Assembly: GCA_000002435.2 (NCBI GenBank)
Contig: CM018790.1
DNA length: 64,000 bases
Direction: 5' to 3' (one strand)
Source: Giardia intestinalis
Taxonomy: Eukaryota
The translations under genes were made by a program, and so were the position numbers. Positions 2,881 to 63,200 of this stretch are shown one piece after another. Position 1 is the stretch's first letter. Each line of letters starts with the position of its first letter. The notes under the pieces are model-generated. The model was not told where the DNA came from. It ran no database searches and worked only from the letters and a program-made list of their open reading frames with translations.

Positions 2881-4887
2881 TCATATGGATTGCAACCCGC
2901 ACAGCTTAAGTGTCTCTACGGGATATACCAAGTGAAAGTCGTGTCCACCAACAGATCTGAAGACTATATTGATTCTAGGGCAGTACTTTTCAAACTGCTC
3001 TTTAGCTTTAGCACACTGAATGATTGCATCGTCGTTTGCTAATACTAGGACTGTTTCTAAATCGAGGTCGTCAAGCCTGGTAAAGTATTCCTTCCCAGAA
3101 GTCCAGGGGAATGCTGCTGAGCTGTTGATGGCCTGCTTTATAGCGCTGGTGCAGCGACTTCGAACATGCGACTCATATTTTCGCTTGACGTTTGCCTGTA
3201 GAGGCTCTGGGAGGTACTTAACCCGGTCAGCACAATCCAAAAACGTCTTGAGGGCAAGCGTTGGATATACAGACATGAGAGGCTGAGTTATACGCGCCAG
3301 GATGGGGTGATCACGCATAAAAATCAGCTTTCGGTTCAGCTCCATCACCATACCGACGGGAGCTAGCAGCACCACCTTGTCAACGATATCTTTCAAGATC
3401 GGGGCCATGGCTGCAGCCATTAGGCCTCCGCTAGAATGCCCCACTAAGGTTATCTTTTGCTGAGAAGAGGTTGAGTTGATCAGTTTGTATGTTCTCACTG
3501 GGTAACGGACCGTTGTCGCTGTCGCTGCAGCAGAAGGCCCTGAGGGATTGTTTTCGTCCTGCGGATTCAGCTCTGCCGGAGGTTGAACTGGTGAACCCGG
3601 AGGCTCATCAAGTATCTCGAATCCATGTATCCAGTTAAGCACTGGCAGAGAAAGGACCTCTAAGCAATACCTTATTAGAGTGTCTATGTCATAGGAGTCT
3701 CCTGGTGTTCCGTCACTTCCTCCTGTTGCTGGCCAGTCGAACGTGAGAACTTCATGCGTCATTGCAAGGGCATTGATGAAGGGAGCATTAATCGTTGTGT
3801 CGAAGTCGAAACCATGCAAAAAGAGCACTCTCGGGTATTGTTCCGTCGAGGGGTCCACTGTTATGCTATCGATTTGATTCTGCTCCTTCAGTGCTTTGTC
3901 GACAGCATCGCACACGGGGTTATCCAATGCTTCACCTGTATCCTTTGGTGTGCTTGCGTCTGTCTTGGGGACTGTGGATACAGGTGGGGTTTCAAGGCTT
4001 TCGTCTTGGTATCCAGCGTTGCGGTTAGGATTATCTGCAGAAACGTCCACTAGAGACACTCTTCCGTTATCGGCTGTGTTCTTTAGTATATATGCGCTGT
4101 GCACGGTACCAGCCCGTGGATGTGAATAGTATATTTTGCACATCCCAAGCGCAGGAAGTTTGCATGCTTGTATCTTTGTTGGGTTGAGCTCCAGCCATTC
4201 CAGTGGATATTTAATCAAGAGATCCGTGGAAGCGGGGAGACGCTCGAGTGGCGGTGGGTCGACCAGCCTGTCTACCGTATCCGTGTCAAAGAACGAGACT
4301 GCACGCATGTCTGGGTTGTTCAGGTAAATGTCTTCCTTCATGCTTTCGGTGAGGATCTTTCCTGGATCGTCGATGGGAGTTGCTGTAAATACGGGGTATT
4401 TGGGCAGTTTTAATGCAGAAGCAGGATCAGCAACAGGATCGTCAAGTCTTGAAACTGTCTCGAGGTATGGCCTTAGAGGTATACTAACTGGTGGCGGGTA
4501 TGCTCCCGGGGAGCGACCACTGACTCCTCTGTCATTGGGAGAGGATTCAAGAACTAGTGGTGTCTCAAAATGCTGTAGACTCTCTATCTCAGATATATCT
4601 CTAGACTGTTCCGGCACATAATCTGCTTCCTTCGCCTCATGGGCAGGGCTGGGCTGCCCTTCGGGAGAGTTTATAGCATTCATAGCTTGGGAGACCTCTT
4701 GCTGGACCTTATCTGCCATGGCCTCGGGGCTAGTAACGCCCAGAGTGACCTCTCCAGCAGGTGAAATAGTGACTTGCTCTGCAAGAGAAGCCTTCTCAGC
4801 GTCCGTGAGCTCGGTGGTAAAGACTACCTCATGGTCACTGTTCGCATCGTTGCCCGCGGGACTTGTTGGATCGCCAGACGGTGTCAT
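2881..4887 (-). CDS. alpha/beta-hydrolase fold protein with a roughly 340-aa low-complexity (P/S/D/E-rich) N-terminal extension
   Basis: C-terminal domain: VLFLHGFDFDTT…FDWPATGGSDG; nucleophile elbow LVGHSSGGLMAAA; …VLLAPVG…; a C-terminal GHDFHLV His motif. The start ATG at 4887 has the context ggaaaaaataATG. Confidence 0.75.
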   Translation of the reverse strand: MTPSGDPTSPAGNDANSDHEVVFTTELTDAEKASLAEQVTISPAGEVTLGVTSPEAMADKVQQEVSQAMNAINSPEGQPSPAHEAKEADYVPEQSRDISEIESLQHFETPLVLESSPNDRGVSGRSPGAYPPPVSIPLRPYLETVSRLDDPVADPASALKLPKYPVFTATPIDDPGKILTESMKEDIYLNNPDMRAVSFFDTDTVDRLVDPPPLERLPASTDLLIKYPLEWLELNPTKIQACKLPALGMCKIYYSHPRAGTVHSAYILKNTADNGRVSLVDVSADNPNRNAGYQDESLETPPVSTVPKTDASTPKDTGEALDNPVCDAVDKALKEQNQIDSITVDPSTEQYPRVLFLHGFDFDTTINAPFINALAMTHEVLTFDWPATGGSDGTPGDSYDIDTLIRYCLEVLSLPVLNWIHGFEILDEPPGSPVQPPAELNPQDENNPSGPSAAATATTVRYPVRTYKLINSTSSQQKITLVGHSSGGLMAAAMAPILKDIVDKVVLLAPVGMVMELNRKLIFMRDHPILARITQPLMSVYPTLALKTFLDCADRVKYLPEPLQANVKRKYESHVRSRCTSAIKQAINSSAAFPWTSGKEYFTRLDDLDLETVLVLANDDAIIQCAKAKEQFEKYCPRINIVFRSVGGHDFHLVYPVETLKLCGLQSI

Positions 4888-4980
4888 TATTTTTTCCTAG
4901 AATGCGAATTCGTACTATAAACCCTGCGAAACTACTAATGTACGAACCCTACAAAGAGAGCTCCGCGGTGATAAAATAAA

Positions 4981-6192
4981 TCACCCTTGCTCAATTATAC
5001 CTAAGACTTCCCGCAACTGAGACTCAGTTCTGCAGAGCACATTTAGATCAATGTCGCGAACCGTTTCGTCAATGTTCAGAACTGACCGGATCTGAGCGAA
5101 GACCTTAGCTCGTCTTTCATTAGAGTAGCTCATGAGATAAGCTGCACAGTTGAAAAGACGCATGTTGCGTTCGCGAACAGGGTCTTTACTGGTATCGTAG
5201 ACCTTTGAGCGGAAAGTGCTGGACAGCCCTGCATCTGACAATGAGTGCTGAGCCTGCGAGATGCTCGGAGCAGCAGTGATAGTATTGCCTTTTTGTTGCG
5301 ACGAGGCAGACCTCGCGCGTTTCTGTACTGGCTGAGTTTCTTTCAATGCTGAGGTGGTCAGTGTAGAACTGTTCATGGGGGTTAAGGCTCCAGACGCGGG
5401 TCTAAACTCATTGAGTGTGGATGGAAGGTCAAAGGTCACCTTCTTGCTTGCGGAGCATCCGGACCCAGGGTCATCCACGGCATTCAAAGGAAAAGATGCA
5501 GGATCAGCCTCTTTATTAAAAGAGCTAGTGCTGTTGGGACAAGCAGAAGTGGATAAGCGCGAGCCGGACCTTAGGGGTCTCGGGGTCTTACTCTTATTAT
5601 TAGGCTGAGTGTCCAGAGATCCAGAGGGATGAGGGGCAAAAAGGAGATCCAGGGCATCAGAGTCCGACTTCGGTACGGGCTTTCGTGCAACATGCTGCTT
5701 CATATTAACGGGGCACGCGAAATAACGCTCGACCTCAAGGAAGATATCATTAAAATGCTTAGCCTTTGCTGAGACTATCCTCCCTTCAAAGACGTTTGCT
5801 TGGAACACACGAATGATCTCGTTATAAAGTCGCCCCGTAGCCTCTATGATGGGTGTACAGTTTTTTGGACGGAGTGCCTGCTCTAGCGTGTACCCAGGTT
5901 TGATATTAAATCGAATGCTGTTATACGTGATCAGAAGAAAGTGGTAGCTGATCTGGCCTATCTCTGAGTAGTGACCGCCCTTCAGATTAGCCAGAATGTT
6001 TTTGAATGCACATGGGTCTTTGATATTGGTCCTATATGTTTGACAGAAACCCGCGTCATGCGCGTACGTCTCCAAGACAGGGGTCTTGAAAATGCTCGAC
6101 AGAACCTCGTTTTCAATAATATTAAGGAATGCGCCTTCCACTGTCTTCGTCAGAGGACCCTTCATCCACGCAATGAGGGGAGCAAGAGACAT
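4981..6192 (-). CDS. hypothetical protein (403 aa), structured N-terminal domain followed by a Ser/Thr/Pro-rich linker
   Basis: Long ORF with Giardia-like codon usage. It is divergent from the gene at 6272 across an A/T-rich 79-bp spacer. I did not recognise any family. Confidence 0.5.
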   Translation of the reverse strand: MSLAPLIAWMKGPLTKTVEGAFLNIIENEVLSSIFKTPVLETYAHDAGFCQTYRTNIKDPCAFKNILANLKGGHYSEIGQISYHFLLITYNSIRFNIKPGYTLEQALRPKNCTPIIEATGRLYNEIIRVFQANVFEGRIVSAKAKHFNDIFLEVERYFACPVNMKQHVARKPVPKSDSDALDLLFAPHPSGSLDTQPNNKSKTPRPLRSGSRLSTSACPNSTSSFNKEADPASFPLNAVDDPGSGCSASKKVTFDLPSTLNEFRPASGALTPMNSSTLTTSALKETQPVQKRARSASSQQKGNTITAAPSISQAQHSLSDAGLSSTFRSKVYDTSKDPVRERNMRLFNCAAYLMSYSNERRAKVFAQIRSVLNIDETVRDIDLNVLCRTESQLREVLGIIEQG

Positions 6193-6271
6193 CGGACTCC
6201 GAGAGCGATCCTTTTGCTTGCAAAAAGAATATGAAAAAGAATATGAAAACTGAAATCAGAAGACTAAAAAC

Positions 6272-7333
6272 ATGCACGCCCTTAACCAGGACTGCTTCAC
6301 CACGATTTCCGTGCCTTCGGTCGAAAAGTTGCGAGTCTTCCACTCCATCCCTCATGGCATAGACAACCCTCCGCGCCTTCTTTTCCTTCATGGTTACTCT
6401 TTCTTTACAGACCTCTACGCCACTCTGCTTAACGAACTTTGCACCCACTTCGAGGTCCTCGCGTTTGATTCTCCTGGTACTGGGGGCTCTGGTCCCATCT
6501 TCGACGGCGATTACACCGTCAACAGCCTCGTCGAGGTTGCTCTAGAACTATTGACTATTAGCCAGCTGAGATGGGTTCCCCGTGCGGCTTCGGTCCTGTA
6601 CAAGGCGAACATGAAGTACGACCCTGACAAAATGCTCGATTCGCAATCGGGGGAGGACAGGCAGCTAGCCGAATCATTGGTCGAGTCACTGGCCTTGAGC
6701 ACAGATAGGAAGAAGTTTACCATTGTTGGACACTCTATGGGCGCATTTCTAGCAGCAGAACTTACAGTAGCGTGCTGGAACTGCGTGGAAGCCGTCTATA
6801 TGGTAGCCCCAGCGGGGATCAAGTGCGAATTGAAGAACTTCTGGTCAGACCTCTGCGGCGGTGCTTTAGGAATATTCAGGAGAGCATATGCGAAGCTGCG
6901 CCATAAGCAGACCATAGAGAAATGGGTGGCTATTCAACAAGACAGTCTGGCACAGGGGCGCTCTGTGACACATGCCGAGCAGATGCAAAGAGATTTCTCT
7001 GAGGCGTATTTGGCTAACTCAAAAGCAGCCGTTTCTCGCTTTTGCTGCCTGGTGGACTTCCCGTGGTCTAACGGGCATGACGTGTTTAGAGAATTGGAAT
7101 CTATAATAGAGAAGAAGGGGTTGAACGCTTACTGCTATCTAATGGAGCAAGACGAGATAATATCGTACAAGGATGTCAGTGCCTTCTTCAGAGACATCAT
7201 GCCCAATTGCCGTCTGCACACCGTTTCGGCCGCCAATCATGACTGGGTGAACGACCACCCCCATCTACTGGTTCATAACATAATTAACGACCGGGCTCAT
7301 CTGACTGCGGCTACGTCTAGTGTCGAGATCTAA
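6272..7333 (+). CDS. alpha/beta-hydrolase fold protein (paralog of 2881-4887 and 8845-9768)
   Basis: PRLLFLHGYSFFTDLY…FDSPGTGGSGP; nucleophile elbow IVGHSMGAFLAAEL; …MVAPAGIKCEL…; C-terminal …NHDWVNDHPH (His). A-rich initiator ctaaaaacATG. Confidence 0.8.
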   Translation: MHALNQDCFTTISVPSVEKLRVFHSIPHGIDNPPRLLFLHGYSFFTDLYATLLNELCTHFEVLAFDSPGTGGSGPIFDGDYTVNSLVEVALELLTISQLRWVPRAASVLYKANMKYDPDKMLDSQSGEDRQLAESLVESLALSTDRKKFTIVGHSMGAFLAAELTVACWNCVEAVYMVAPAGIKCELKNFWSDLCGGALGIFRRAYAKLRHKQTIEKWVAIQQDSLAQGRSVTHAEQMQRDFSEAYLANSKAAVSRFCCLVDFPWSNGHDVFRELESIIEKKGLNAYCYLMEQDEIISYKDVSAFFRDIMPNCRLHTVSAANHDWVNDHPHLLVHNIINDRAHLTAATSSVEI

Positions 7334-8729
7334 CTGTATAAAATATTCCGTTATTGGGGTCACATCCCCAAAATTGCATGCCAGGAACATCTTTTATGGT
7401 CTCTTCAATTGCGCTCACGTATGCGTTCTGCTCGTGTTGCCCAGGTAGTTCGGTCTGTGTAGCAAGGAACATATCTCTTTTATTTAGGAAGCCGTCGACT
7501 TCCAGACCAAATAGCCCTATCTTGACCGTGCTAGTGCCATGCTCTTTGCTGAGATCTATGTAGCCTGGCCAGAAGAGACGGCCGTATCCATTTCCAAGCA
7601 CTAGGTTCCGAAGACGTTTGGGCTTCTCTGACTGCGCCTCAGAGCTGTAAACTTTTATAGATTTAGTGGCGGCTATTGTGCCTCCAGACTCATCAGCGGA
7701 ATGCAATCTAGTCTCCAACGGTGGAGCGCTGAACTTCACTGCAAACTGCTTAAGGTTCTTTTCATGCTTCTGCTGCATACGCTCAAGGTGCATTTGCTTC
7801 CGTGTTTGTCTATCTGCTTGGCGACGAAGCTTCCGTTGCTCCCTTCGTTCTGCTTTAGCCTTTCTCTTTTCAGCAATCATCCTTTCTTGATCCTCCCGAT
7901 CTTGCTGCATCTTAGTTAAATGAGTTTCTAACTTCATTTGGTTTTCCTGCACGCAGTAGTTATTGCCGTCGGCGAAAGATGACAGTTGCTGGGCAGTGTC
8001 GGAAGTAATATCATCGTGGTCAGACGCGTCTGATGAGGAGCAAGTGAGAGGCGGAAACTCGTACACGCGTGCTTGAATGCTATCCAGGGAGCAGACTGAG
8101 GCATTGTGCTGCCGAATTTCCTCCATGTAAGAGCTAATATGAAGATCAAACTCGCACGATGTCAGCGGAGTAAGCTGATAAGGCGGGAGCACCTGAGTTT
8201 GCCCTGTAGGCATGTCCCATGAGGGAGGCGCTAGTATCTCTGGCTTTTCTAACGACAGATTGCAAGCGTCGCTATAGCCGAAGTTATGAGGATAAACCGA
8301 GTTATAAGAAGGTTGGTAGATATTCGTGCAAGAGATGGGTGGCTGCTGATAGAATGATTCAGGGTTGACAGGCTGGGGAAAGACCTCCTGAGGGGCGTAA
8401 TTATATAGTACTTGCTGATGTGGCTGGCTAGAAAACTGTGATGGAAACGGATAAACAGGGTCTGTGACAACGTTCTGTGGTTGTGAATAGGGCTGCTGCG
8501 GCCCGGAGCTGTGCATAGGTTGCGGTGGCTGAGAAAAGCCAAAAACTGACGGGGATGTGTGTGCTTGCATGGGCGGGTCTTCGTCAAGCAAGAGTGGCGG
8601 ATCATCATCGGATCGCGGAAGCCGCGGAGCACCTGGAGGAGCCAGCTGACGAGCAAACGAGACTGGGGTGCTCTGCAGCGCCTGAGGGTCAAGCTGTGGC
8701 GGAGAGGTAACACCGCTTGCCGAGTACAT
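7317..8729 (-). CDS. hypothetical Pro/Gln-rich protein with a basic coiled-coil segment
   Basis: Large ORF. The track start at 8741 is a GTG; the first ATG lies 4 codons later, at MYSASG…. There is an in-frame stop immediately upstream. Its 3' end overlaps the convergent hydrolase gene by 17 nt. Confidence 0.5.
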   Translation of the reverse strand: MYSASGVTSPPQLDPQALQSTPVSFARQLAPPGAPRLPRSDDDPPLLLDEDPPMQAHTSPSVFGFSQPPQPMHSSGPQQPYSQPQNVVTDPVYPFPSQFSSQPHQQVLYNYAPQEVFPQPVNPESFYQQPPISCTNIYQPSYNSVYPHNFGYSDACNLSLEKPEILAPPSWDMPTGQTQVLPPYQLTPLTSCEFDLHISSYMEEIRQHNASVCSLDSIQARVYEFPPLTCSSSDASDHDDITSDTAQQLSSFADGNNYCVQENQMKLETHLTKMQQDREDQERMIAEKRKAKAERREQRKLRRQADRQTRKQMHLERMQQKHEKNLKQFAVKFSAPPLETRLHSADESGGTIAATKSIKVYSSEAQSEKPKRLRNLVLGNGYGRLFWPGYIDLSKEHGTSTVKIGLFGLEVDGFLNKRDMFLATQTELPGQHEQNAYVSAIEETIKDVPGMQFWGCDPNNGIFYTVRSRH

Positions 8730-8844
8730 GGGCGTTGGCACCGGTTTCTGGGCCCTTCTTTCTCAGTAGATATCTGTTGCAAAAATTGAAAAACGCCGTT
8801 ATAACGTTTCAAGTCCATTTGGCACCAATAAGTTGAGACAAAAA

Positions 8845-9768
8845 ATGGAGCACGGACATGACGCCTCGGACCCCATTGAGGAGTACTTTTTGCCCCGGGA
8901 GAAGGTGAGCTTCATCTCTGTGGAAGGATATCAGCAGGTGAAACTGTTTCGCTCAATAAAGGATAAGAGTGGACCCTGGGTTTTGTTTCTTCACGGACTG
9001 ACTTTCTACACCGATATATGTGCGGCATTTCTCAACAAGTTGTCTCGCAAGCATAATGTGCTCTCCTTCGACTGGCCCGGGGTGGGCGGTACAGATCCTT
9101 CCCGCAACGATATCTACACTCCACAAGAATTGCTCGGCTTTGCAGAGAAAGTTGTTGAAGCAGCAGAGCCGGGCCTGCCTGGCAGAGGCCTCAGTATCGT
9201 TGGGCACTCTATGGGCGGGCTCATGTCCCTTATCTTAGCAACTCACTATCTAAAGCAGGGATTTGATATAAAGAACGTTATCATGCTCGCCCCGGCAGGA
9301 GTCAAGGTCCACAAGTGGATGACTCACAGGCTGCTCACCACTCCGATCATAGGCCCTGTTCTGAACTTCATTTTTAAGAGATTCCCAGACGCCACCGCGA
9401 AGCGCATAGTCTACGAAACCCGCTACAACTTCCATTACATGCCAAAGCATATGGAGGAAGCGCTGTGGGAGCCTTTCAAGAAGAGCATGCTTCGCGACAC
9501 GAGGGTCACCGCAGCCCGCACCCTTGCCTTTGCGCAGTTTCCCTGGGAAAACCACGAAGAGCTTTTTATAGAGTTGGATAGGAGTAAGGTTAATGCAATA
9601 GTCGTGCTAGCTGGGCGCGATGTCACCATAGATACCCCCGCCACAGAGCACTTCTTGCGGACCAAGTGCTCTTCTATAAGCATACAAGTGTACCCAGATT
9701 ATACTCACGACCTTGTGGCCTGTAACGCAGATGTCATTACGGAATATATTTCTGCCGTCTTGCCGTAG
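8845..9768 (+). CDS. alpha/beta-hydrolase fold protein (third paralog)
   Basis: PWVLFLHGLTFYTDIC…FDWPGVGGTDP; nucleophile elbow IVGHSMGGLMSLILA; …MLAPAGVKV…; …YTHDLVACN. The ATG at 8845 has the context gacaaaaaATG; the track start at 8833 is a non-ATG codon. Confidence 0.8.
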   Translation: MEHGHDASDPIEEYFLPREKVSFISVEGYQQVKLFRSIKDKSGPWVLFLHGLTFYTDICAAFLNKLSRKHNVLSFDWPGVGGTDPSRNDIYTPQELLGFAEKVVEAAEPGLPGRGLSIVGHSMGGLMSLILATHYLKQGFDIKNVIMLAPAGVKVHKWMTHRLLTTPIIGPVLNFIFKRFPDATAKRIVYETRYNFHYMPKHMEEALWEPFKKSMLRDTRVTAARTLAFAQFPWENHEELFIELDRSKVNAIVVLAGRDVTIDTPATEHFLRTKCSSISIQVYPDYTHDLVACNADVITEYISAVLP

Positions 9769-26675: not shown

Positions 26676-26969
26676 CTAGCCATGGACCTCCTCTTCTGGT
26701 TCTAGCTCCATACCGCCATCGTGATCATCGATACCCTGATCTGCAACAGCGTTGAGTATCCGCAGTATGCCGTGTATGGACTGAAGAACCTTCAAATTCT
26801 TGATGACCCCTTCCATGGAAAACGTGAGGGAAGCCTCTTGTTTGAGTACCACAGCCGCCTGCTGTTCATTCTGAGACCCCGCGGTTGCAGAGCAGATCAT
26901 ATTCTTGTAAGACTGTAGCGCCTCCGTCGCGCAGCTGTGCGCTAGGGCTACTAGAGACTCTATCTCCAT
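26676..26969 (-). CDS. small hypothetical protein (98 aa from MEIESLVALAHS…)
   Basis: The internal ATG at 26969 has an A-rich context (ggcaaaaagaacctcATG). It is divergent from the coiled-coil gene at 27034 across a 64-bp A-rich spacer. No family recognised. Confidence 0.45.
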   Translation of the reverse strand: MEIESLVALAHSCATEALQSYKNMICSATAGSQNEQQAAVVLKQEASLTFSMEGVIKNLKVLQSIHGILRILNAVADQGIDDHDGGMELEPEEEVHG

Positions 26970-27033
26970 GAGGTTCTTTTTGCCTAAGAGCAGAAAAACG
27001 GAAAGAAAAACAGAATTTTGTTTGTTAACCCCC

Positions 27034-29058
27034 ATGGCTACGTATGATCACATTATGAGCTCACTGCAGGATCACGTCGACTCCCTTACCACACTGTCTG
27101 CAAATATCACCCAAGCAGTTGCTGAAGACCCGACAATTCCCATGGATTCGTTCGAGACCGAGATTGCGCTCATTGAGACGAAGTTTCAGGCTGTCCAGCG
27201 GGCCGTGACGCAGGCTCTAGGTGGAAATAGCATGAATACAGATGAATTATGCACGTTAAACTACAAGTATATGGAGTGCAACAAGAAGTTAAAAGACATC
27301 CGAAAGTTCATAGCAGAGCACGAAAAGGAGGGACTTTTGACCACAGACAACGATGATTTAAAGGATCTTTCTCCGGAGGATCTCAACACAGGAGGACCGG
27401 AGCCTACGAAACCGTACAGACAGGTTCACATATCCGCCGCGGCCCCAGTACCAAACTTTCTTGCCCCACCAGCAACTGGCCATTCAGGTGGAGGTGCCCT
27501 AGTAATCCCTCCTCAAACGTCCCCGTCCATCGCTAAGTTGCAATCTGCTGCCTCTATTAATAAGGGGTCTTACAACTCTCTCTTGGCTGTCTCTAACATA
27601 GGTGACAAGGGAGCTAATGTCTTGCTCCCCTCTGATGGTACTGAACTGTCCATGCGTACCAGTTCACCATCTGGTGTCCTTCGTAAGAGTTCTAACCCTG
27701 AACAGTACAAAAAACACGCAGAAGAGCTTAACAGAGGCATCAATAAGCTTCGTTCAAACCTCATAGCACTCAATCGAGCAGCTAATGAGCCAGAGACAAT
27801 CACAGAGGCTCTGACGGGCGTCAATCTGCAAGACGCTCGACTGGCCAGAGATAACAAGAAGCCCGTATCTGGGTCGGAGAGCGTGGCACAAATCACGGCC
27901 AATTTACGACGAGAAAACATCTCTCTCAAGGAGGAGCTGACAACGCTGAAGACACGCACAAAGCAGCAAGAAGATGAGATAGCATCCCTCAAGAAGGCAC
28001 TCTCCACGCAAACGAAGCTATCGGAAAAGCAGTCTGATGACATAGACATCCTTCAGGCTTCACTAGATAGAGTCACAGAAGAGCGCCAGTCGTTATCTGC
28101 TACATTGAAAGAGAAAATGCGCGCACTCGGAGACCTGCGCAAACAGCTAGACACTATAAGTGATCAGAACAAGGAGTTGACCGAATTGTTGGAGGTGGAG
28201 CGCAATGATCGAAATGTGGCCATCTCAGAACTGCGCGCAGAGCTGGGTCACTATAAAGCAGAGAACGATACCCTTAAGAGTAGACTCAAGACCCTAGACG
28301 AACTAAATGTAGAAGGCAACGTGCTTGAGCTGGAGCGAGTCACTGCCGACATCGAAGACATGCAGACTATGGTTAAGCAATTGAAGAAGCAAAAGGCAGA
28401 TATGGCCAATAGATTTGCGCGTGAGAAGGAGCTTCTCCAAGAGAACATCGATGTTTTAGAAGCGCAGCTTGCCTCAGGTTACTTAGAATCGGAGAAGGGC
28501 GCTCCGTCCCACGCTGAAATCGTCATGCTGGAGCAAGAGGTGGTCAAGCGCGACATTGAAATTAAGCGTCTCCGTAATCTGGTTGCTAAGGCCATGAGTG
28601 ACAAGGATGAAGCAATGGCTCTTCTGGGTCTTGGAGCCGGTGACACTACAGACGAACGTACAGATGAGACTGACACAGACAGCGCGAGCTTTAGGATGCT
28701 TGAGCCTAGGTCCGGGTTTTCTACTGTGCCGCCTGGGCCATACCCTGTTGGCCGTCAGAGCTTTCTTTCTAGTCTACCACAGGCTCCGCCCCAGCCCCTC
28801 CAACCAGATGCGGGCAGAGCTCCCAGTACTCTTTCTATGTTACTATCCCAGAAGGCTGGCCCTTCCTTCGGTGTTTCCACGGGTCAGCTGGGACGAGTGG
28901 GTGGGTCTGAGGGGCATCCAACAGGGAGAAATGCCAGTTTACATGATGATTCCACTGTGTCCGGAGCTAACGAAATCGAGGACGATGACCTCGATGTGGC
29001 TGCTCTTGTCAGGAAGAAGCGTGATAAGAGACTATCAGTAACAAATGCCCCCAAGTGA
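27034..29058 (+). CDS. coiled-coil protein (674 aa)
   Basis: Start MATYDHIMSS…. There is a long heptad-rich central region. The stop TGA is embedded in AGTGAAC (29054-29060). Confidence 0.65.
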   Translation: MATYDHIMSSLQDHVDSLTTLSANITQAVAEDPTIPMDSFETEIALIETKFQAVQRAVTQALGGNSMNTDELCTLNYKYMECNKKLKDIRKFIAEHEKEGLLTTDNDDLKDLSPEDLNTGGPEPTKPYRQVHISAAAPVPNFLAPPATGHSGGGALVIPPQTSPSIAKLQSAASINKGSYNSLLAVSNIGDKGANVLLPSDGTELSMRTSSPSGVLRKSSNPEQYKKHAEELNRGINKLRSNLIALNRAANEPETITEALTGVNLQDARLARDNKKPVSGSESVAQITANLRRENISLKEELTTLKTRTKQQEDEIASLKKALSTQTKLSEKQSDDIDILQASLDRVTEERQSLSATLKEKMRALGDLRKQLDTISDQNKELTELLEVERNDRNVAISELRAELGHYKAENDTLKSRLKTLDELNVEGNVLELERVTADIEDMQTMVKQLKKQKADMANRFAREKELLQENIDVLEAQLASGYLESEKGAPSHAEIVMLEQEVVKRDIEIKRLRNLVAKAMSDKDEAMALLGLGAGDTTDERTDETDTDSASFRMLEPRSGFSTVPPGPYPVGRQSFLSSLPQAPPQPLQPDAGRAPSTLSMLLSQKAGPSFGVSTGQLGRVGGSEGHPTGRNASLHDDSTVSGANEIEDDDLDVAALVRKKRDKRLSVTNAPK

Positions 29059-29060
29059 AC
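29054..29060 (+). terminator. Giardia-type polyadenylation signal AGTGAAC overlapping the stop codon
   Basis: ccaAGTGAACgag contains the TGA stop of the 27034-29058 CDS. Confidence 0.55.
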
Positions 29061-29083
29061 GAGAACAAGCTTTGGCATGGTCA

Positions 29084-29281
29084 CTATTCTGCTGTATCCA
29101 CAGAGTTGCCACTTTGGTCTCGTAAGAGCATGACTTCTCTGATCGCAGCAGCAAGAGCTTCAGGATTTGCACCCCCTTCACAAAGAGAAAGTATGCAAGC
29201 AAGAGCGCTCCGAGACAATCCCGTCTTCAATATACTTGATATTTCCTCGATGTGGATGAGCGCGTCTGCAAGATCGGGCAT
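29084..29281 (-). CDS. MZT1: MOZART1 (mitotic-spindle organizing protein 1), gamma-tubulin complex microprotein, 65 aa
   Basis: MPDLADALIHIEEISSILKTGLSRSALACILSLCEGGANPEALAAAIREVMLLR… aligns with the MZT1/GIP signature (human …[41 protein letters not shown]…). A near-canonical Giardia initiator gatttttaaccaaaaaaATG is present. Confidence 0.8.
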   Translation of the reverse strand: MPDLADALIHIEEISSILKTGLSRSALACILSLCEGGANPEALAAAIREVMLLRDQSGNSVDTAE

Positions 29282-29443
29282 TTTTTGGTTAAAAATCTAG
29301 GTACCCTAGCCTACTTTTCTCGTGTCAACCTTCTGTTGTGGAAGCATGCACAACCTGCTGGGATTCCTCTTCGCTTCAGTACCAGAACAAAGACATTTCC
29401 CGAACTAGCTCAAAGTCTCGATGTGGGAATTTATTAAAATTCC

Positions 29444-30502: not shown

Positions 30503-33500
30503 CTACGTCAAAGCGTTGCTTATTTCTCTCCGTAGCTTATCAATTGCCGATTCGAATTCCGTGAGTCGTACGCTTGCAAAGAAGCTCATTAACGTCTTGC
30601 ACGTGGCCATGTCTTGCTGATAAATGGCTACCTTGGCTGGATCCGAGGTCTTTTGGATGCTAGAGACATATAACTTTATAAATCTCTCCAATATCCCTCT
30701 CACACGCGTGCCTTGTATATTATACCTGAACATGTTACAGACCTCGTTAGGAACATAACGCTCTATGAACTCATTCGGGGAGATGTTCGCCATAACATAC
30801 ACATTTGTCAGGATTTCACACAGTTCTGACAGAAACTCGCTAAGAAGGTCTGCTCCCACATTATTTATTTTCCTGCTTAAATCATGGAGAGTCCGGGGCC
30901 AAAAAACTGTCATGATGACTCCGTAGATGGCGCCAAGGATTGGAAACGGTACAAAGATGCTTTCATATTTCTTGATAGGAGTAGTAACCTCCGTCAAGCC
31001 AAAATGCTTGTATATCTTGTCCTTGTGAGGGCTTCCTGTCACTTCTATAGGTTTATCAACTGTCACACCCATTGTTACACTGTGGATACCAGATCCAGCC
31101 CAGGCGATCGAGTCAACTTGTCTATGACTACGCGTGCCAATGATTTCATCGTTAAATATGGCTATCAGTGATGAACACAGCTCTTCGAGTTTTCGTAAAT
31201 TTTCCCTTGTTGTGTGTGAATAGATATAGCCATAGAGAGATTCTAGAAGAACGAACTGGGAGCCCATCAGCTGGTTGCCTAGCCTGCCATCTAGTAACTC
31301 TGCGAAAGTCCCTGGGGTCATCGGGACCTTGTTCGACTCGGCTATGGCGCCAAAAAGCCTATCTTGTCTTCTGCAAAGATCGGTAACGGAGGATACCATA
31401 TCTTGCGACGGCCCTCCATCTGTACCAACTGCAGGCCGACCCTGCGACAGAAGTACTGTGAGTGTCGGATACTCAGCAGCAGACACATTGTCTCTATATT
31501 CATAATCTGCCACAGCGCGAGTGGATGGATGGAGTACGCTGGTGTAAAGCGCCCAGATGGCATGCTCAGACCAGGTTAGATCGTTTTGTTTAACATCCTT
31601 GCTATCGCCAAAATTATTTATAATGTGTTTGATTGGTGCAACTACAGCCATGAAGAATTCATCTAGCCTTATGGTTCCGCGGAGAGAAAGGGTACTGGGA
31701 TAAATCGGCTTCAAAAACGTTGCCACCGCATTGGAATTTATCCGCAGCACATCCAATAGCTCAGAAAAATATCTATAGACCGTCACGTCGTGTCTCTTTC
31801 TGTCTATTAGAACAGCAACGTCAAAGATATATCTCAATAAGACAAGTGAGACGATGGGATCATCCTTTACCTTCAGGCACGCTTCGACTGACTTATCTAA
31901 AAGTATATGTAACTCCTTTAAAAGCTTGTCTTTGATCTGGCCCTCCGATAGCTTCATGCGGTTGCAGGTGTCATCGAGTCTGAAGCGTATTTCATAAGCA
32001 GAGTACTGCATGGCTTCTGTTAAGCTAGGCATAAGGCAGTATTTCTTATCCAAAGATGAAGGGATGGAGAGACTGAAGCCTGCCAGCACCTTATTAAGCG
32101 ACGGCGTCAAAGGCACTGGCTTGAGAACAGATGTCGTCTGGGAAACCTGAAAATATTGCTGAATAGGTCGCAGAAGTCCAAAAAAGTACTGCATAAGTTC
32201 TGTGGCCAGCGGCATCCCGGATTCATCTATTGCGTTCACCAAGGAAAAAATAAAGCTATAGCACTGCTTGAAGTCACGAGCATACAATAGAGACGAGAAT
32301 GATACGTAATTCTCAACAAACTCAGCACTATACTGGCGACAAGCGCAGAGTACCTTATCGTATATCACCTGCATACTGGACGCTCCCCGGAGGAATGACG
32401 TGATAACCTTCCTTGTCCACTTGGGGTAGTTCACCCCTAGGGATTCAAAGATAAGCTTGTTGTTATCGAGACCGTACCAGAGACTGAGGGGCTGTGCGGG
32501 GGCTATGCAATGAATACCCCCTGCAATGATTGAGACAAATTGCGGGGCTGTAAACTGTGCCATAATGACTAGGGAAAATACATATTGACAGATCATGATC
32601 TTATGTCTGGATGAGACAGAAAAGACATCCGGCTGGAGCGAGCTGAAGGAGAGGGAGGTGATAGGGAGGGAGGAGAGTAAGGTAGAAAAGATGGGCTGTT
32701 CTGACTTTAGTGACATAACAAGGAGCTGACCCTGATTTGTGCCCAGCAACCAGTAGTCTGCTACAAACGGTGACACCGCCACCGCCGTAACGTAGGCCAA
32801 CGAGTCGCGAGACACCGGTTGTGAAAGTGAAAATGTTCGTGTGTCCGACTTGGGTGAGCCAGTGTCAAGTCCAGTGACTTTGACAATGGAGCAGATAGAT
32901 CCAGAACTGACGACAAGCGTTACGTCCTTCGGCCCATCGGATAATATGTATAGAGAGTTAATTTCAGACGAAAAACCACGCTTCAATACGATTGCAGGCA
33001 TGCCGCACGAAGAGGTGTCTAAGATCCGTACTAAATAAAAGAACTTATCGATGGAAAATGCCAAAAACTCCCTTCCAATTGCACAAGAACATAGATGCTC
33101 GGCAATATCCTCCTTGGACTTGGCCGCAGGAAACTTTGACGAAATGTTGCTTTGGTAGGATGCGACGAGCGTATCAAGAATATCGTGTGTGTCGGAAGTC
33201 CCGCATGTGTCTGGCCCTTTGCCGCTCACAGCAGCCACCGGATTGGTAGCGTCAGCCACTTCACTCCGGGTCGTCTGATTCTCAGAACAGCTCTGTCCTG
33301 CGTCGGACCTGACGCCCATCAAATATCCAGTCAGAGAAAGCATACCTTTCTTGATAAATTGCTTGTTTTCCAGTCTATACACTAGTAACTCGTTGGTTGT
33401 GCTGAGCAGGGCTATGTTATCCCCCAGATGCTCCAAGGGGTTTACTGCAAGAGTAGCAAACCGTATCTTTTTCTCAAATATTCCTGTGTCTATTGCTCCC

Positions 33501-33748
33501 AGGCAATAGGTGTTATCCTTGTATGATGCTTCTAAAAGGGAGTACCCAGACGGTGTAATAGTCATGATACCCCCCGTGTGTGTCTTGAAGGCAACAATGC
33601 CTGAGTCACCCTCCAAAAAAGCTTGAGTGGTAACAAAGATGCTGTGGAGGCTTTGTGTGGAAGTACGTAGATGCTCTGCACGGAAGAAGTCGTCATAAGG
33701 CGTCTCTGTTGCTGCCACAGAGCGGACTTGATGGGTGATAATGGACAT
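30503..33748 (-). CDS. large hypothetical protein (about 1081 aa)
   Basis: Continuous ORF. The track start at 33757 is a TTG; the first ATG is at 33748 (MSIITHQ…). No family recognised. It may be a beta-propeller plus alpha-solenoid protein. Confidence 0.6.
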   Translation of the reverse strand: MSIITHQVRSVAATETPYDDFFRAEHLRTSTQSLHSIFVTTQAFLEGDSGIVAFKTHTGGIMTITPSGYSLLEASYKDNTYCLGAIDTGIFEKKIRFATLAVNPLEHLGDNIALLSTTNELLVYRLENKQFIKKGMLSLTGYLMGVRSDAGQSCSENQTTRSEVADATNPVAAVSGKGPDTCGTSDTHDILDTLVASYQSNISSKFPAAKSKEDIAEHLCSCAIGREFLAFSIDKFFYLVRILDTSSCGMPAIVLKRGFSSEINSLYILSDGPKDVTLVVSSGSICSIVKVTGLDTGSPKSDTRTFSLSQPVSRDSLAYVTAVAVSPFVADYWLLGTNQGQLLVMSLKSEQPIFSTLLSSLPITSLSFSSLQPDVFSVSSRHKIMICQYVFSLVIMAQFTAPQFVSIIAGGIHCIAPAQPLSLWYGLDNNKLIFESLGVNYPKWTRKVITSFLRGASSMQVIYDKVLCACRQYSAEFVENYVSFSSLLYARDFKQCYSFIFSLVNAIDESGMPLATELMQYFFGLLRPIQQYFQVSQTTSVLKPVPLTPSLNKVLAGFSLSIPSSLDKKYCLMPSLTEAMQYSAYEIRFRLDDTCNRMKLSEGQIKDKLLKELHILLDKSVEACLKVKDDPIVSLVLLRYIFDVAVLIDRKRHDVTVYRYFSELLDVLRINSNAVATFLKPIYPSTLSLRGTIRLDEFFMAVVAPIKHIINNFGDSKDVKQNDLTWSEHAIWALYTSVLHPSTRAVADYEYRDNVSAAEYPTLTVLLSQGRPAVGTDGGPSQDMVSSVTDLCRRQDRLFGAIAESNKVPMTPGTFAELLDGRLGNQLMGSQFVLLESLYGYIYSHTTRENLRKLEELCSSLIAIFNDEIIGTRSHRQVDSIAWAGSGIHSVTMGVTVDKPIEVTGSPHKDKIYKHFGLTEVTTPIKKYESIFVPFPILGAIYGVIMTVFWPRTLHDLSRKINNVGADLLSEFLSELCEILTNVYVMANISPNEFIERYVPNEVCNMFRYNIQGTRVRGILERFIKLYVSSIQKTSDPAKVAIYQQDMATCKTLMSFFASVRLTEFESAIDKLRREISNALT

Positions 33749-33875
33749 CGGTAGCAACCAGCTTTCTAATCTTTCTAGATTAAAAAATCCCCTTTTAAAT
33801 AAAAGGGTATCAGTGTTGTTCCTTTGTAGCTCTTACTCCTTCGCCTCTCTCAACTATCTGTAAGGACACCACTCA

Positions 33876-57072: not shown

Positions 57073-57245
57073 GGGGAATTTTTGGTTGGCAAGGAAGGCC
57101 AAAAGGAGTTTTTTCGCCGACAGCGTTCACATGTAATTGCAAAAAGTTGCAGAAAATTAACGTGAATCCGCGCAGACCCTTGCTTTGCAATTTCAGATGA
57201 TGTGTTCAAAAGTTTGTTTCAAAATGTTGCGGAATCCAAAAAAGG

Positions 57246-60200
57246 ATGAACCCGTTCGACCTTACTCCTGCATCGATTCCCTTCGTCCATGCGAGTGACA
57301 AGGCGGCCATGCTTCAGAGCGTGATACCGTTAGCAGTGGCTAAGGGCGTGGCATCTAATGCAGACACTCTTTCGGCGACAGACATCGCCATTGCGGCACG
57401 TGAGCCGCTACGCAACGCAAATCCGAATCCAGATGCCAGTTACATACTTACCCTGACACGCTACTATAAGCTTATGCGTCCAATTGCAGAGCACGCAAAT
57501 GACCACGACGTTCTGCGCGCCACCGTGGCTAACCCCAGCAAGTGGGTCTCTGAGAACGTATCTCTCGAGTGCTCCTCCATTGCCGGTGAAGCAGTTGCTG
57601 CTGCAATTAATCTAGCTGCAGCAAAGATTTTTAGTGGAATAGGAAATCACTACGACGCGACTAGGTTCTTCTCGGAGGCCGAGGCTATTCTGCAGGAGGC
57701 TGCTACGCTAGCAGAAAGCGGCCACCTATGTGGATTTTTAGGCCCTACTCATCTCCGGGCGCTGGCTTTGTTTGCCCAAGCACAGTCTCTCGAGAGCACT
57801 GCCGTGAGCAAGATCAACAAATTGGGTGCAGAGGAAATAGAGTCAACTGAACTGCAGACAGCCCTGCGTACGCTCACCGAGGCTAGTGCTCTTTACGATC
57901 GAGTTTTCAAAGACCTGGCTCCGACAGCCTCTTCTTCTACCGTTGTTGCAAGCACGTCTCTCTTTAAGGCTAAGCTTCTCCCTGCTCTTGCCAGATACGT
58001 CGTTGCGAATGCCTACTTTAATGGGAACAGGCTTTCTAATACCGCTACTGAATGCCGCAGGGCCTCTGAACTTCTTACCGTCGCACAAGCCGCGCTGGAG
58101 CTTACTCCTGACCAAGAACGCATGACTTCTGAGCTGGCCACGGCAATTATCGGCATACAGAGCAACCTACCCGTGGCCGGTGTCGATGACGAGGCACAGT
58201 TATATGATCTTCAGAGGATGACAGAGCAAGATTTCCGTGAATTCAAGCAAGCATACGGCGCACCAACAGATGTTCTACCTCCGTGGAGAAACGATTCTTC
58301 TCAAGACACTGCGGCTCTTAACGAATTACGCCGCATTGTGGCCAGCAAGGACGATGAAATTCAGGCACTTAACATCTCGTTACGAAACGCGCAGCTGGAG
58401 CTTCTCCAGGTATCTTCTGGAAGCGTTCTCAACACAGAAGTCACGTATCTTAAGGGTCTTTTGGAGAAGGAACATGAAACCGTGAAGTCACTTCAAGAAG
58501 CAGCAGAACTTAAGAACAAAGAGGTGGATGCATTGAACGAAGCCCTTAAGCAACAAGAGGAGATGGTCAAGTCCCTCTGTGAAAGTATCTCTCCATCTGC
58601 ATCCCGCAAGAATCTCAAGAGCCCAGCTGCGGGGGATGCGTCCACCCGCGAGGCAGACAGGCGAGAGCGCATGATAAAGAAACTTCAGATGCAGGTTATG
58701 AGTAAGGACATTGAGATTAATGAGTTGAAGTCTTCTCTTGAGCTAGCGAACAGCGGCATGTTAGCCTCTACCACCGGTGCGACGACAGACGAGGTCGACG
58801 CTCTCCGAAGGGACATTGCGGCTCTTCAGAATGCTATTGATGATAAGGACAAAGAGGTAAAGTGGCTAGAAGACGAGATTCGGCAAAAGGATGATACGAT
58901 GATAGAATTGCGGGGCCGCACGGAAAGTGAGATAGAGTCCCTCCAGGAGACAGCCGCCAGCAAAGACCAGGAAATTGCAAAGCTCGAGGCAGAATTGAAG
59001 AGTACCTTGCAAATGATCCAGGCCCTCAAGAACTCTGAGGCTGATGGCGCTGGTGCAACAAACATACTGCAGCGTGAGAAGGCACACCTAGAGGATAAGT
59101 TGCAAGAAAAGGAAAATATCGTAGCAGAATTAAACGAGGCCTTAAGAAAAAAAGATTTAACGATTGCTGAGCTGCATGAGAGCGCTGCAGCTCAGCAACG
59201 GAAGGAACAGGAGACAATCGACTTCTACGAAAACCTCAAAAGAGAGCAGAATCAAGTTATCTCTGATCTGCGAAGCTCGCTCTCGGCTAAGCAGGCCACT
59301 TTAGCCATGGCAGAGGAGACTGCAAAGACACTAGAAAGTGAAGTCCAGTCGCTAAAGAGTGAAGTGGACGCTAAGACTATGGAGATAGAAAGCCTCCTTG
59401 CTATGTCGACGAGCAAGGCCAACGATATGGACCAGACCATGGAAGAGCTCCAGTCATTGAGGACCGAACTGCTGGCCAAAGAAGGAGAAATTCAAACCCT
59501 TAGGAACCTAATCGAAGAGAAGGAAGCAATAATTACTGATTTACGGATGACAGAAAGCGAACACCAGAACAAGTATACTACTCTCCAAACCACACTTCAG
59601 CGGCTGAATGAAGACCTTCAGAGCAGAGACCGTCAGATCGTTGCACTTTTAGAAGAAGCAGAGGCAGCAGCTGAGCGTCAAAAGGCGAGTCAACATCTTC
59701 AGGAACAGCTCCAGAGGCAGATTTCTCAGCAAGATATTGTAAGCAAAAGCGTCCAAGAACAAGTCTGTATGATGAGCGATGCTGCCTGTCGGGCCCGCTA
59801 TTTAGAGGATAAATTGGCCACCAAAACATACGACGAAGAAGTTTTGCGTACTATGATACAACGTGTAGAAGATGCCGACCGAGACAAGGGGAGGACTATC
59901 GAGAGTCTGAGAACGGAGATTGAGTTTTTGCGCAGTGAACCTAAGTATCAGCCAGACGACAGATCGGGTCAAATAGAAGCACTGGAAGACAAGATCGTAG
60001 CGTTGAACACACATATTCGGTATCTTACTAACGAGCTACTTCAAAAGGAGCAAGAGCTAGTGCACTTAGCTAATGACGATAAATCAGCTGAGACAGACCG
60101 TCTGAAGAAGCTTCTTATTAGTCAGGATGATGAGCTGAATGAGCTAAAGGAGAACCTGTTCCTTCTTAGAGAAAAGGGAATAAGCGATGGAATTCTTGAC

Positions 60201-63200
60201 GGAGAACCCACGATGGTTCCTGCAAGCATGCTTGTTAGCAAGCAAGAGGAGATCGATAGATTAAAAGAAGCCTTAGAGTCTCTTAGCGCAGAGGAGCCGA
60301 TTATAGTTACCCGGCACGAAGAGCCAGAAGAGGATATCTCTAGTCTTAAGAAGCAGCTTACTGAGCTCACCGGACTGGTTGCCAGTCAAGCCGTCCAGAT
60401 TGAGGGTTTGAATGCTCAATTAGCCGATAAAACACGTGACCTTGACACTGCCTTGTATGATGTCGCAGTCTTAAGACGTGCATTGCGCGTCATTGAGGAT
60501 GACTACAGAGATTCTGAGCGCAGTCTTGACCAACTCGAACAACAAGCTGTCAACATGAAGGATGCTTATGAGTTATCTCTTGCAGCGCAGGTAAGTCCTA
60601 TTGGCGTTCTTGAAAACGAGCTCCGAGCACTCAGTACGCATAATCAGCAATTGATAGACGTCATTGATGAAAAGGACGGTGAGATTTCACGGCTTCATGC
60701 TTCTGTTATCGATGCTATTTCTGCTAGCCAAGTTGTAGTTGCTCCTCCCGATTTCTCCAATTTGCTCACCGATAAAGACGCCGAGCTCGAGCGCCTCCGC
60801 ACGCTCCTCGACCATCCCCCGGTTGAGCAGCCCGTAGACGACTCCCAGAAGTACCGGGACGCGATCGGCTTCCTCAAGGAGGAGCTTGCCTACAAGGACC
60901 ATGAGATCCGCCGCATGAGGGCTGACAGCGCGCCCTCCGAGGTCGCGCAGATCGTTGACGCCTCCCTCAAGCAGGCCCTGGCACAGAAAGAGGAAGAGGT
61001 GGCGCGCCTCAAGAGCGCCCTGGAGGATCTCGCCTCGGACCACATCGGCCAGAAGACCGGCGAGCCCGACACAGCCGCTCTCAAGGCCCTGCAGCAGGAG
61101 ATCAGCACAAAGGACGACGAGATCCAGAAGCTCACCGCTGTCATCGCTGCCATGCCGCGCACCCATGAGCCGCAGGACATCACTGACGCCGCAGAGCTGG
61201 TGCGCATCCTTGAGTCCAACCTCGAGAGGGAGAAGGATGACACGGCTGCTCTTCGCGACGCCCTGCGCAACGCAGAGGAGAAGAACAATGAGCAGCTTCG
61301 CGAAATAGATGATCTTCGTCGGGAGCTCGACGCGCTTCGCAGGGCGGCTCCCGTCGAGCCTCTTGCGGCTGCAGCCCCGGCCGACGACGACCTTCTCCGG
61401 TCGCTGCGCGCAGACAACGAGATGCTGATGGAGGATGTCCATGATAAGCGCCAAGACATCAAGGTTCTGGAGCGCAAGCTTCTTCAGGCCAAGGACGTCA
61501 TCGAGGATCTCAAGGACGCGCTCGTCCGCGTCGAGCCCGCCGAGCTGACGGCCATTGCAGACGGCGACGCGGAGGACATCGGCCGCCTCCAGGACCTCCT
61601 CGAGAACATGAAGCAGCGCGAGAAGGAGCTCAACCGCTTCTACACCGACCTGCTGAAGCAGACCCAGCCGGCACAGGCACCAGAGCCCCTCACCCAGGCA
61701 GACTTCGAGCGGATCCTCTCCGAGAAGGACGCCGAGCTCGAGCGCCTCCGCACGCTCCTCGACCATCCCCCGGTTGAGCAGCCCGTAGACGACTCCCAGA
61801 AGTACCGGGACGCGATCGGCTTCCTCAAGGAGGAGCTTGCCTACAAGGACCATGAGATCCGCCGCATGAGGGCTGACAGCGCGCCCTCCGAGGTCGCGCA
61901 GATCGTTGACGCCTCCCTCAAGCAGGCCCTGGCACAGAAAGAGGAAGAGGTGGCGCGCCTCAAGAGCGCCCTGGAGGATCTCGCCTCGGACCACATCGGC
62001 CAGAAGACCGGCGAGCCCGACACAGCCGCTCTCAAGGCCCTGCAGCAGGAGATCAGCACAAAGGACGACGAGATCCAGAAGCTCACCGCTGTCATCGCTG
62101 CCATGCCGCGCACCCATGAGCCGCAGGACATCACTGACGCCGCAGAGCTGGTGCGCATCCTTGAGTCCAACCTCGAGAGGGAGAAGGATGACACGGCTGC
62201 TCTTCGCGACGCCCTGCGCAACGCAGAGGAGAAGAACAATGAGCAGCTTCGCGAAATAGATGATCTTCGTCGGGAGCTCGACGCGCTTCGCAGGGCGGCT
62301 CCCGTCGAGCCTCTTGCGGCTGCAGCCCCGGCCGACGACGACCTTCTCCGGTCGCTGCGCGCAGACAACGAGATGCTGATGGAGGATGTCCATGATAAGC
62401 GCCAAGACATCAAGGTTCTGGAGCGCAAGCTTCTTCAGGCCAAGGACGTCATCGAGGATCTCAAGGACGCGCTCGTCCGCGTCGAGCCCGCCGAGCTGAC
62501 GGCCATTGCAGACGGCGACGCGGAGGACATCGGCCGCCTCCAGGACCTCCTCGAGAACATGAAGCAGCGCGAGAAGGAGCTCAACCGCTTCTACACCGAC
62601 CTGCTGAAGCAGACCCAGCCGGCACAGGCACCAGAGCCCCTCACCCAGGCAGACTTCGAGCGGATCCTCTCCGAGAAGGACGCCGAGCTCGAGCGCCTCC
62701 GCACGCTCCTCGACCATCCCCCGGTTGAGCAGCCCGTAGACGACTCCCAGAAGTACCGGGACGCGATCGGCTTCCTCAAGGAGGAGCTTGCCTACAAGGA
62801 CCATGAGATCCGCCGCATGAGGGCTGACAGCGCGCCCTCCGAGGTCGCGCAGATCGTTGACGCCTCCCTCAAGCAGGCCCTGGCACAGAAAGAGGAAGAG
62901 GTGGCGCGCCTCAAGAGCGCCCTGGAGGATCTCGCCTCGGACCACATCGGCCAGAAGACCGGCGAGCCCGACACAGCCGCTCTCAAGGCCCTGCAGCAGG
63001 AGATCAGCACAAAGGACGACGAGATCCAGAAGCTCACCGCTGTCATCGCTGCCATGCCGCGCACCCATGAGCCGCAGGACATCACTGACGCCGCAGAGCT
63101 GGTGCGCATCCTTGAGTCCAACCTCGAGAGGGAGAAGGATGACACGGCTGCTCTTCGCGACGCCCTGCGCAACGCAGAGGAGAAGAACAATGAGCAGCTT

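Follow-up and report, generated by a model that had tools for sequence, protein, structure and literature searches.

Does a 65-codon ORF on chromosome 2 of Giardia intestinalis encode the gamma-tubulin complex microprotein MZT1, and if so, what could such a protein do there? The locus touches the question of how the eight axonemes, the median body and the ventral disc arise in a cell with a gamma-TuSC only. We analyzed the ORF within a 64-kb window, by which we mean the whole stretch of DNA under study. In what follows, we ask whether the frame is a gene, to which family its product belongs, how the locus is arranged and what the protein may contribute to microtubule nucleation.

The ORF and its existing annotation

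The ORF lies on the minus strand at 29084-29281 and comprises 65 codons followed by a TAG stop at 29084-29086. Its exact translation is MPDLADALIHIEEISSILKTGLSRSALACILSLCEGGANPEALAAAIREVMLLRDQSGNSVDTAE, which confirms the 65-aa product quoted in a preliminary description of this DNA. When all six frames are considered, the 64-kb window contains 107 ORFs that start with ATG and reach 65 aa or more. Because ORFs this long are common in the window, length is uninformative and the case rests on content.

The 65-aa sequence is identical to XP_001705906.1, KAE8302530.1, ESU36732.1 and UniProt A8BNG1 (UniRef100_A8BNG1), and is named in the databases 'Mitotic-spindle organizing gamma-tubulin ring associated protein' of Giardia intestinalis/duodenalis. 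The exact sequence is present on 181 contigs, one of which is chromosome-scale (1.54 Mb). Inspection of the existing annotation had been proposed as a check on the MZT1 reading, and the MOZART1 family name is already given at this locus. In addition, Dhani et al. (2013) included a sequence labeled 'Gl, Giardia lamblia' in their alignment of predicted MOZART1 orthologues (Fig. 1A; PMC3814152). Since the gene is annotated in the reference genome and was shown in a published alignment in 2013, Giardia MZT1 is not a new gene; its model, family name and orthology have been public for years. The expectation that a small ORF of this kind would often be left unannotated or called hypothetical does not hold for the reference strain, where it is annotated by name. 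It does hold for P15, whose orthologue carries the NCBI label 'Hypothetical protein GLP15_2973'; the corresponding UniRef entry carries the family name.

The protein belongs to the MOZART1 family

We ran the HMM search that had been suggested for this ORF. In Pfam-A, the protein matched PF12554 (MOZART1) with a score of 51.5 bits (gathering cutoff 27; E = 8.6e-14), with residues 8-49 aligned to profile positions 4-45 of 47. PF12554 was the sole Pfam family matched by the 65-aa protein at E <= 1. MZT2 (MOZART2) is another small helical gamma-TuRC microprotein, which binds the GCP2 N-terminus, and it belongs to a different family from the Giardia protein. Because only PF12554 was matched at this threshold, the Giardia protein is MZT1 and not MZT2.

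Reciprocal similarity was examined using proteins of solved structure. When PDB chain sequences were searched with phmmer, all seven significant matches were MZT1/Mozart1 ('Mitotic-spindle organizing protein 1 / Mozart1'), with E-values from 3.4e-7 to 5.5e-6. Among these matches are the human Mozart1 chains in 6l81 as well as MZT1 from complexes of pig, Xenopus and Chaetomium, and the next PDB sequence matches after them were designed helical repeats with E-values of 0.05 or higher. In the reverse direction, the cores of three solved MZT1 chains were searched against the 64 kb with tblastn and matched only 29111-29245 (E = 3e-9 to 1e-8, 40-53% identity), with a runner-up at E = 0.04. Whichever way the search was run, solved MZT1 chains from the PDB, including the human one, ranked first and no other chain reached significance.

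Searched exhaustively with phmmer, 1.84 billion representative proteins yielded 247 homologues at E <= 1e-3, nearly all of them 55-150 aa long. We aligned 60 sequences, consisting of the query and 59 homologues (56 from the phmmer search and three other Giardia orthologues), and each of the 60 is a member of PF12554. The invariant columns of the family, L22, G37 and P40, are all present in the Giardia protein. The near-invariant columns (S15, L18, T20, G21, L27, L33, E35, N39, A42, L43, A44 and E49) are all kept as well, and the protein carries the signature S/T-x-x-L-x-TGL ... LxE-x-G-x-NPEALA ... E. Its N-terminal extension is shorter than in most of the aligned homologues.

Two related sequences from outside the window have unusual structures. 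The top distant homologue (P0030) is 186 aa long and contains two identical MZT1 units, most likely the result of a gene-model or assembly duplication and not a true tandem MZT1. The other, an 81-aa variant from a Logan assembly (P0029), is found on a single contig; it equals the Giardia protein up to residue 33 and is frameshifted thereafter. This variant is probably an assembly or sequencing error and not a pseudogene.

The predicted fold matches solved MZT1 structures

An AlphaFold2 model made with the homologue alignment has three helices and a mean pLDDT of 76.7, and pLDDT below 50 is confined to the last four residues, 62-65. The Giardia protein therefore combines microprotein size (65 aa, within a range of about 55-100 aa) with a predicted compact fold of three helices. 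When the model was compared to the PDB with Foldseek, ranks 1-11 were all MZT1 chains (TM 0.69-0.84; rmsd 1.0-4.0 A, mostly 1.0-2.1). The matches include MZT1 on the Chaetomium GCP3 N-terminus (6l7r), on human and Chaetomium GCP5 N-termini (6l81, 6l82) and inside native vertebrate gamma-TuRCs (9eoj, 9g3x/y, 9i8m, 9qvm). Foldseek E-values were weak (0.05-3) because the query protein is so short, and the match probability was 0.92-1.0 for the top nine, 0.60 for rank 10 and 0.38 for rank 11.

The PF12554 match, the PDB matches in both directions, the fold and the annotation all bear out the MZT1/MOZART1 identity that the preliminary description had assigned to the ORF. Based on these data, the ORF very probably encodes a three-helix microprotein that is the MZT1/MOZART1/GIP1 orthologue of Giardia intestinalis (assemblage A, WB-type; chromosome 2), and we refer to it as GlMZT1.

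The gene is conserved across Giardia lineages

We compared the locus to three others: an assemblage B-type locus (L001), a P15/assemblage E locus (L003) and a locus from a fourth, more divergent Giardia (L005). Orthologues in other Giardia lineages exhibit 82-98% protein identity. Over codons 1-55, dN/dS among the four lineages was 0.02-0.08 where calculable. In this region, the 19-33 synonymous differences over ~41 sites are at or near saturation, and there are just 2-11.5 non-synonymous differences over ~124 sites. Codons 56-65 are relaxed (dN/dS 0.23-0.71), and the C-terminal tail of the L005 orthologue differs in length and sequence. Gene order is also maintained: the ankyrin-repeat gene, MZT1, the convergent coiled-coil gene, a small ORF and a pseudouridine synthase follow one another in assemblages B and E, and on the short L005 contig two partial opposite-strand genes flank MZT1. 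These comparisons show that purifying selection acts on 29084-29281 (-) and that it is a genuine protein-coding gene. The selection is also indirect evidence that the protein is expressed.

The opposite strand carries an 81-aa ORF (Table 1), and the abundance of ORFs of at least 65 aa in the window would be compatible with the 65-codon frame being a chance ORF or a non-expressed relic, with the antisense ORF as the real feature or with no gene at all. In each of the other lineages (L001, L003 and L005), stop codons interrupt the antisense frame, and its product has no Pfam match above cutoff. On these grounds we rejected the antisense ORF as a real gene; it exists where it had been described, and it is spurious, as had been claimed. 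The stops in every other lineage also count against the broader chance-ORF reading, as do the HMM E-value, the low dN/dS with saturated synonymous sites in four lineages and the conservation of both synteny and start context. Given the PF12554 E-value, the purifying selection and a reverse tblastn search specific to the MZT1 ORF, we rejected this reading as vanishingly improbable. It is effectively refuted already by the PF12554 match and the cross-lineage comparison, and we proceed with 29084-29281 (-) as the MZT1 gene.

Start context and gene ends

Giardia genes are known to have a short AT-rich initiator. The start context of MZT1 is GATTTTTAACCAAAAA followed by ATG, with five A's before the ATG. 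An initiator upstream of the ORF had been proposed; the AT-rich element is real, and the string quoted for it contained one A too many (six, not five). Assemblages A, B and E share the conserved motif TAA(C/T)CAAAAA-ATG. The 15 positions before the ATG (-15 to -1) are 87% A+T, whereas the window averages 49% and a content of at least 80% is found in only 1.8% of 15-mers. For 22 sampled long ATG-start ORFs, the upstream sequence averages 66% A+T and several end in AAAAAATG. The element upstream of MZT1 fits a Giardia initiator, and its function is putative.

The ATG of the divergent ankyrin-repeat gene is at 29444 (+), 162 bp from MZT1. On the other side, MZT1 is convergent with a coiled-coil gene that ends at 29058, and the distance of 25 bp given in the preliminary description is correct. 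The stops are so close that the MZT1 and coiled-coil transcripts must either abut or overlap at their 3' ends. The consensus of the Giardia poly(A) signal is AGTRAAY. A perfect match to this signal, AGTGAAC at 29054-29060 (+), overlaps the coiled-coil gene's TGA stop. AGTGACC, which has one mismatch to AGTRAAY, follows the MZT1 stop.

Table 1. Features within and around the MZT1 ORF (coordinates are those of the 64-kb window)
Feature	Position	Strand	Basis
Conserved MOZART1 core, residues 8-49 (IHIEEIS..TGL..LCEGGANPEALAAAIRE)	29135..29260	-	PF12554 match, alignment, dN/dS
Three-helix fold (predicted): H1 2-17, H2 24-35, H3 40-61	29099..29278	-	AlphaFold2 and Foldseek
Variable C-terminal tail, residues 56-65, in part of low confidence or disordered	29087..29116	-	dN/dS, pLDDT
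AT-rich element GATTTTTAACCAAAAA directly upstream of ATG, putative initiator/core promoter	29282..29297	-	A+T content, conservation
Remaining part of the 162-bp intergenic region between the divergent MZT1 and ankyrin-repeat genes	29298..29443		ORF positions
Spacer from the MZT1 stop to the stop of the convergent coiled-coil gene, 25 bp	29059..29083		ORF positions
Antisense 81-aa ORF, GTG start, shadow of MZT1	29055..29300	+	Stops in other lineages

Neighboring genes

MZT1 had been described as tucked between two cytoskeletal genes, a claim for which we find no support. The coiled-coil neighbor (GL50803_14971, chromosome 2; 26968-29058, +) is annotated as 'SMC family protein', 'Chromosome segregation protein SMC' or hypothetical, and the divergent neighbor is annotated as 'Ankyrin repeat protein 1'. 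Because neither an SMC domain nor any other Pfam domain scores above cutoff in the coiled-coil protein, the 'SMC' name looks like a coiled-coil artefact. Hints of ATG16 and Rab5-bind in the coiled-coil protein and of Mto2_bdg in the ankyrin protein (E = 0.009) all fell far below the Pfam cutoff and were not counted as evidence.

Public models of the coiled-coil gene are 696, 674 and 667 aa long, and the start of the 674-aa model is at 27034. By RNA-seq, GL50803_14971 is down-regulated on host-cell contact (PMC7461913). Between this gene and the pseudouridine synthase lies the small ORF at 26676-27035 (-), which is up to 119 aa long and has no Pfam match. Its counterparts in assemblages B and E (L001 6296-6583, L003 6316-6621) are syntenic genes of 95-101 aa, and the small ORF may encode a further uncharacterised microprotein. 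The ankyrin gene is adjacent to a 1,084-aa ORF at 30503-33757 (-), which has no Pfam domain above cutoff and faint beta-propeller hints; its length is conserved in assemblages B and E (1,073-1,075 aa).

Comparison with known MZT1 systems

Vertebrate MZT1 (PDB 6x0u, 6l81, 9eoj, 9g3x, 9i8m) belongs to the same Pfam family as GlMZT1 and exhibits 50-53% identity to it over a 38-residue core. The two also have in common the three-helix fold (TM 0.69-0.84) and the signature EIS..L.TGL...L....LCE.G.NPEAL. Vertebrate chains are 72-86 aa long and have a longer N-terminus, whereas GlMZT1 has 65 aa, of which only ~9 precede helix 1. The docking partners of vertebrate MZT1 are GCP3, GCP5 and GCP6, whereas Giardia is reported to have GCP2 and GCP3 only.

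Fungal Mzt1 proteins (S. pombe Mzt1/Tam4, Candida albicans Mzt1 and the Chaetomium Mozart1 of 6l7r and 6l82) are microproteins of similar size, with 64 aa in S. pombe (PMC3814152). Direct GCP3 binding is established for fungal Mzt1, whereas for Giardia it is expected from family membership. The plant proteins GIP1 and GIP2 (GCP3-interacting proteins) are of the same family, and the core motif is common to the plant-like homologues in our alignment. Plant GIP1 and GIP2 also act at the nuclear envelope and at centromeres.

Candida albicans has a gamma-TuSC only, and its Mzt1 and receptor proteins drive oligomerisation. By analogy, the Candida albicans gamma-TuSC and Mzt1 would be the best functional analogue of the Giardia case. 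No Giardia counterparts of the fungal receptors Spc110, Spc72 and Mto1 were identified in the material examined.

MZT1 and the gamma-tubulin complex of Giardia

According to Kim and Park (2018), gamma-tubulin, GCP2 and GCP3 are the only gamma-TuRC proteins in Giardia (PMC6562232, sections 3.5 and 4), and GCP4-6 are lacking there. In the same paper, gamma-TuSC knock-down led to a reduced median body, shorter caudal flagella and cytokinesis defects. The three genes are GL50803_114218 (gamma-tubulin), GL50803_17429 (GCP2) and GL50803_12057 (GCP3) (PMC6562232, PMC4931700). The table of a basal-body review likewise has gamma-tubulin, GCP2 and GCP3 as present, and MZT1 is absent from it (PMC4931700). 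The literature therefore supports the genomic co-occurrence of MZT1 with gamma-tubulin, GCP2 and GCP3 in Giardia. The annotated MZT1 orthologue contradicts the statement in PMC6562232 that there are no further gamma-TuRC proteins. MZT1 is known to the databases and has been overlooked by the Giardia cytoskeleton literature. Our literature search for Giardia MZT1, which included its accessions (A8BNG1, XP_001705906) and product name, found no functional study, no transcript, protein or interaction data and no report of GlMZT1 localisation. MZT1 is also absent from the RNA-seq supplement of PMC7461913, whose tables list only differentially expressed genes.

MZT1 binds GCP3 directly in fission yeast (PMC3814152). 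In the solved structures of the family, MZT1 intercalates helically with the N-terminal helical domains of GCPs. In other eukaryotes, its partner is the N-terminal helical domain of GCP3, and also those of GCP5 and GCP6 where they exist. The resulting MZT1-GCP module stabilises the complex and aids its oligomerisation and its recruitment to microtubule-organising centers. Since GCP2 and GCP3 are the only GCPs reported in Giardia, GlMZT1 would, judging from its family, most likely bind the N-terminus of GlGCP3. Such an arrangement would resemble the gamma-TuSC-plus-Mzt1 system of Candida albicans. We infer that GlMZT1 binds GlGCP3, co-localises with gamma-tubulin and has a role in nucleation. 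A more specific proposal, to which we give even chances, is that GlMZT1 is the one accessory factor overlooked in the Giardia literature and that it lets GCP3-containing small complexes oligomerise and target basal bodies, median body and ventral disc differentially.

Published fragments of GlGCP3 are MLETILAL (morpholino), residues 121-139 (antigen peptide) and LALLNYIS (primer) (PMC6562232). A padded 62-aa query assembled from these fragments returned no GlGCP3 candidate in a search whose sparse word index also missed known MZT1 homologues.

GlMZT1 could instead be a true MZT1 homologue whose role has diverged from gamma-tubulin-complex assembly, for example acting mainly at the nuclear envelope or centromeres, as reported for Arabidopsis GIP1/2, or binding a lineage-specific partner in place of GCP3. 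Without GCP4-6 (PMC6562232), Giardia has only one of the three canonical MZT1 docking partners, and a diverged role would also suit the short N-terminal extension and the fast-evolving C-terminal tail. However, the residues conserved throughout the family are all retained under strong purifying selection, and the fold superposes on MZT1 bound to GCP N-termini. Moreover, Candida albicans, with its gamma-TuSC only, still uses Mzt1 with GCP3/Spc98. We consider a diverged role improbable, and we favor a role for GlMZT1 in the gamma-tubulin complex.

The presence of MZT1 in Giardia adds weight to the placement of MZT1 in the ancestral eukaryotic nucleation toolkit, even without GCP4-6. If MZT1 does enable the oligomerisation and targeting of small complexes, Giardia would represent a minimal, deeply branching 'gamma-TuSC + MZT1' nucleation system. 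The practical value is modest: for Giardia cell biologists, the annotated MZT1 is a candidate component of the gamma-tubulin complex.

Other features of the window

No Rfam family reached its gathering score anywhere in the 64 kb. At the right end of the window, a reading frame of at least 2,251 codons (57201-64000, +) runs off the edge. Within this frame, a 951-bp tandem repeat is present in at least 3.4 copies with 99% identity at 60765-63917. Tandem Repeats Finder missed this repeat because its period exceeds the program's limit of 500. A 1,069-aa minus-strand ORF at 60687-63896 is the antisense shadow of the repeat-bearing frame, and the products of 57201-64000 on both strands have no Pfam domain above cutoff. 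Toward the other end of the window, three genes with an alpha/beta-hydrolase fold lie within 7 kb of one another (2881-4887, -; 6272-7333, +; 8833-9768, +), suggesting that the cluster at 2881-9768 is a local paralogue family.
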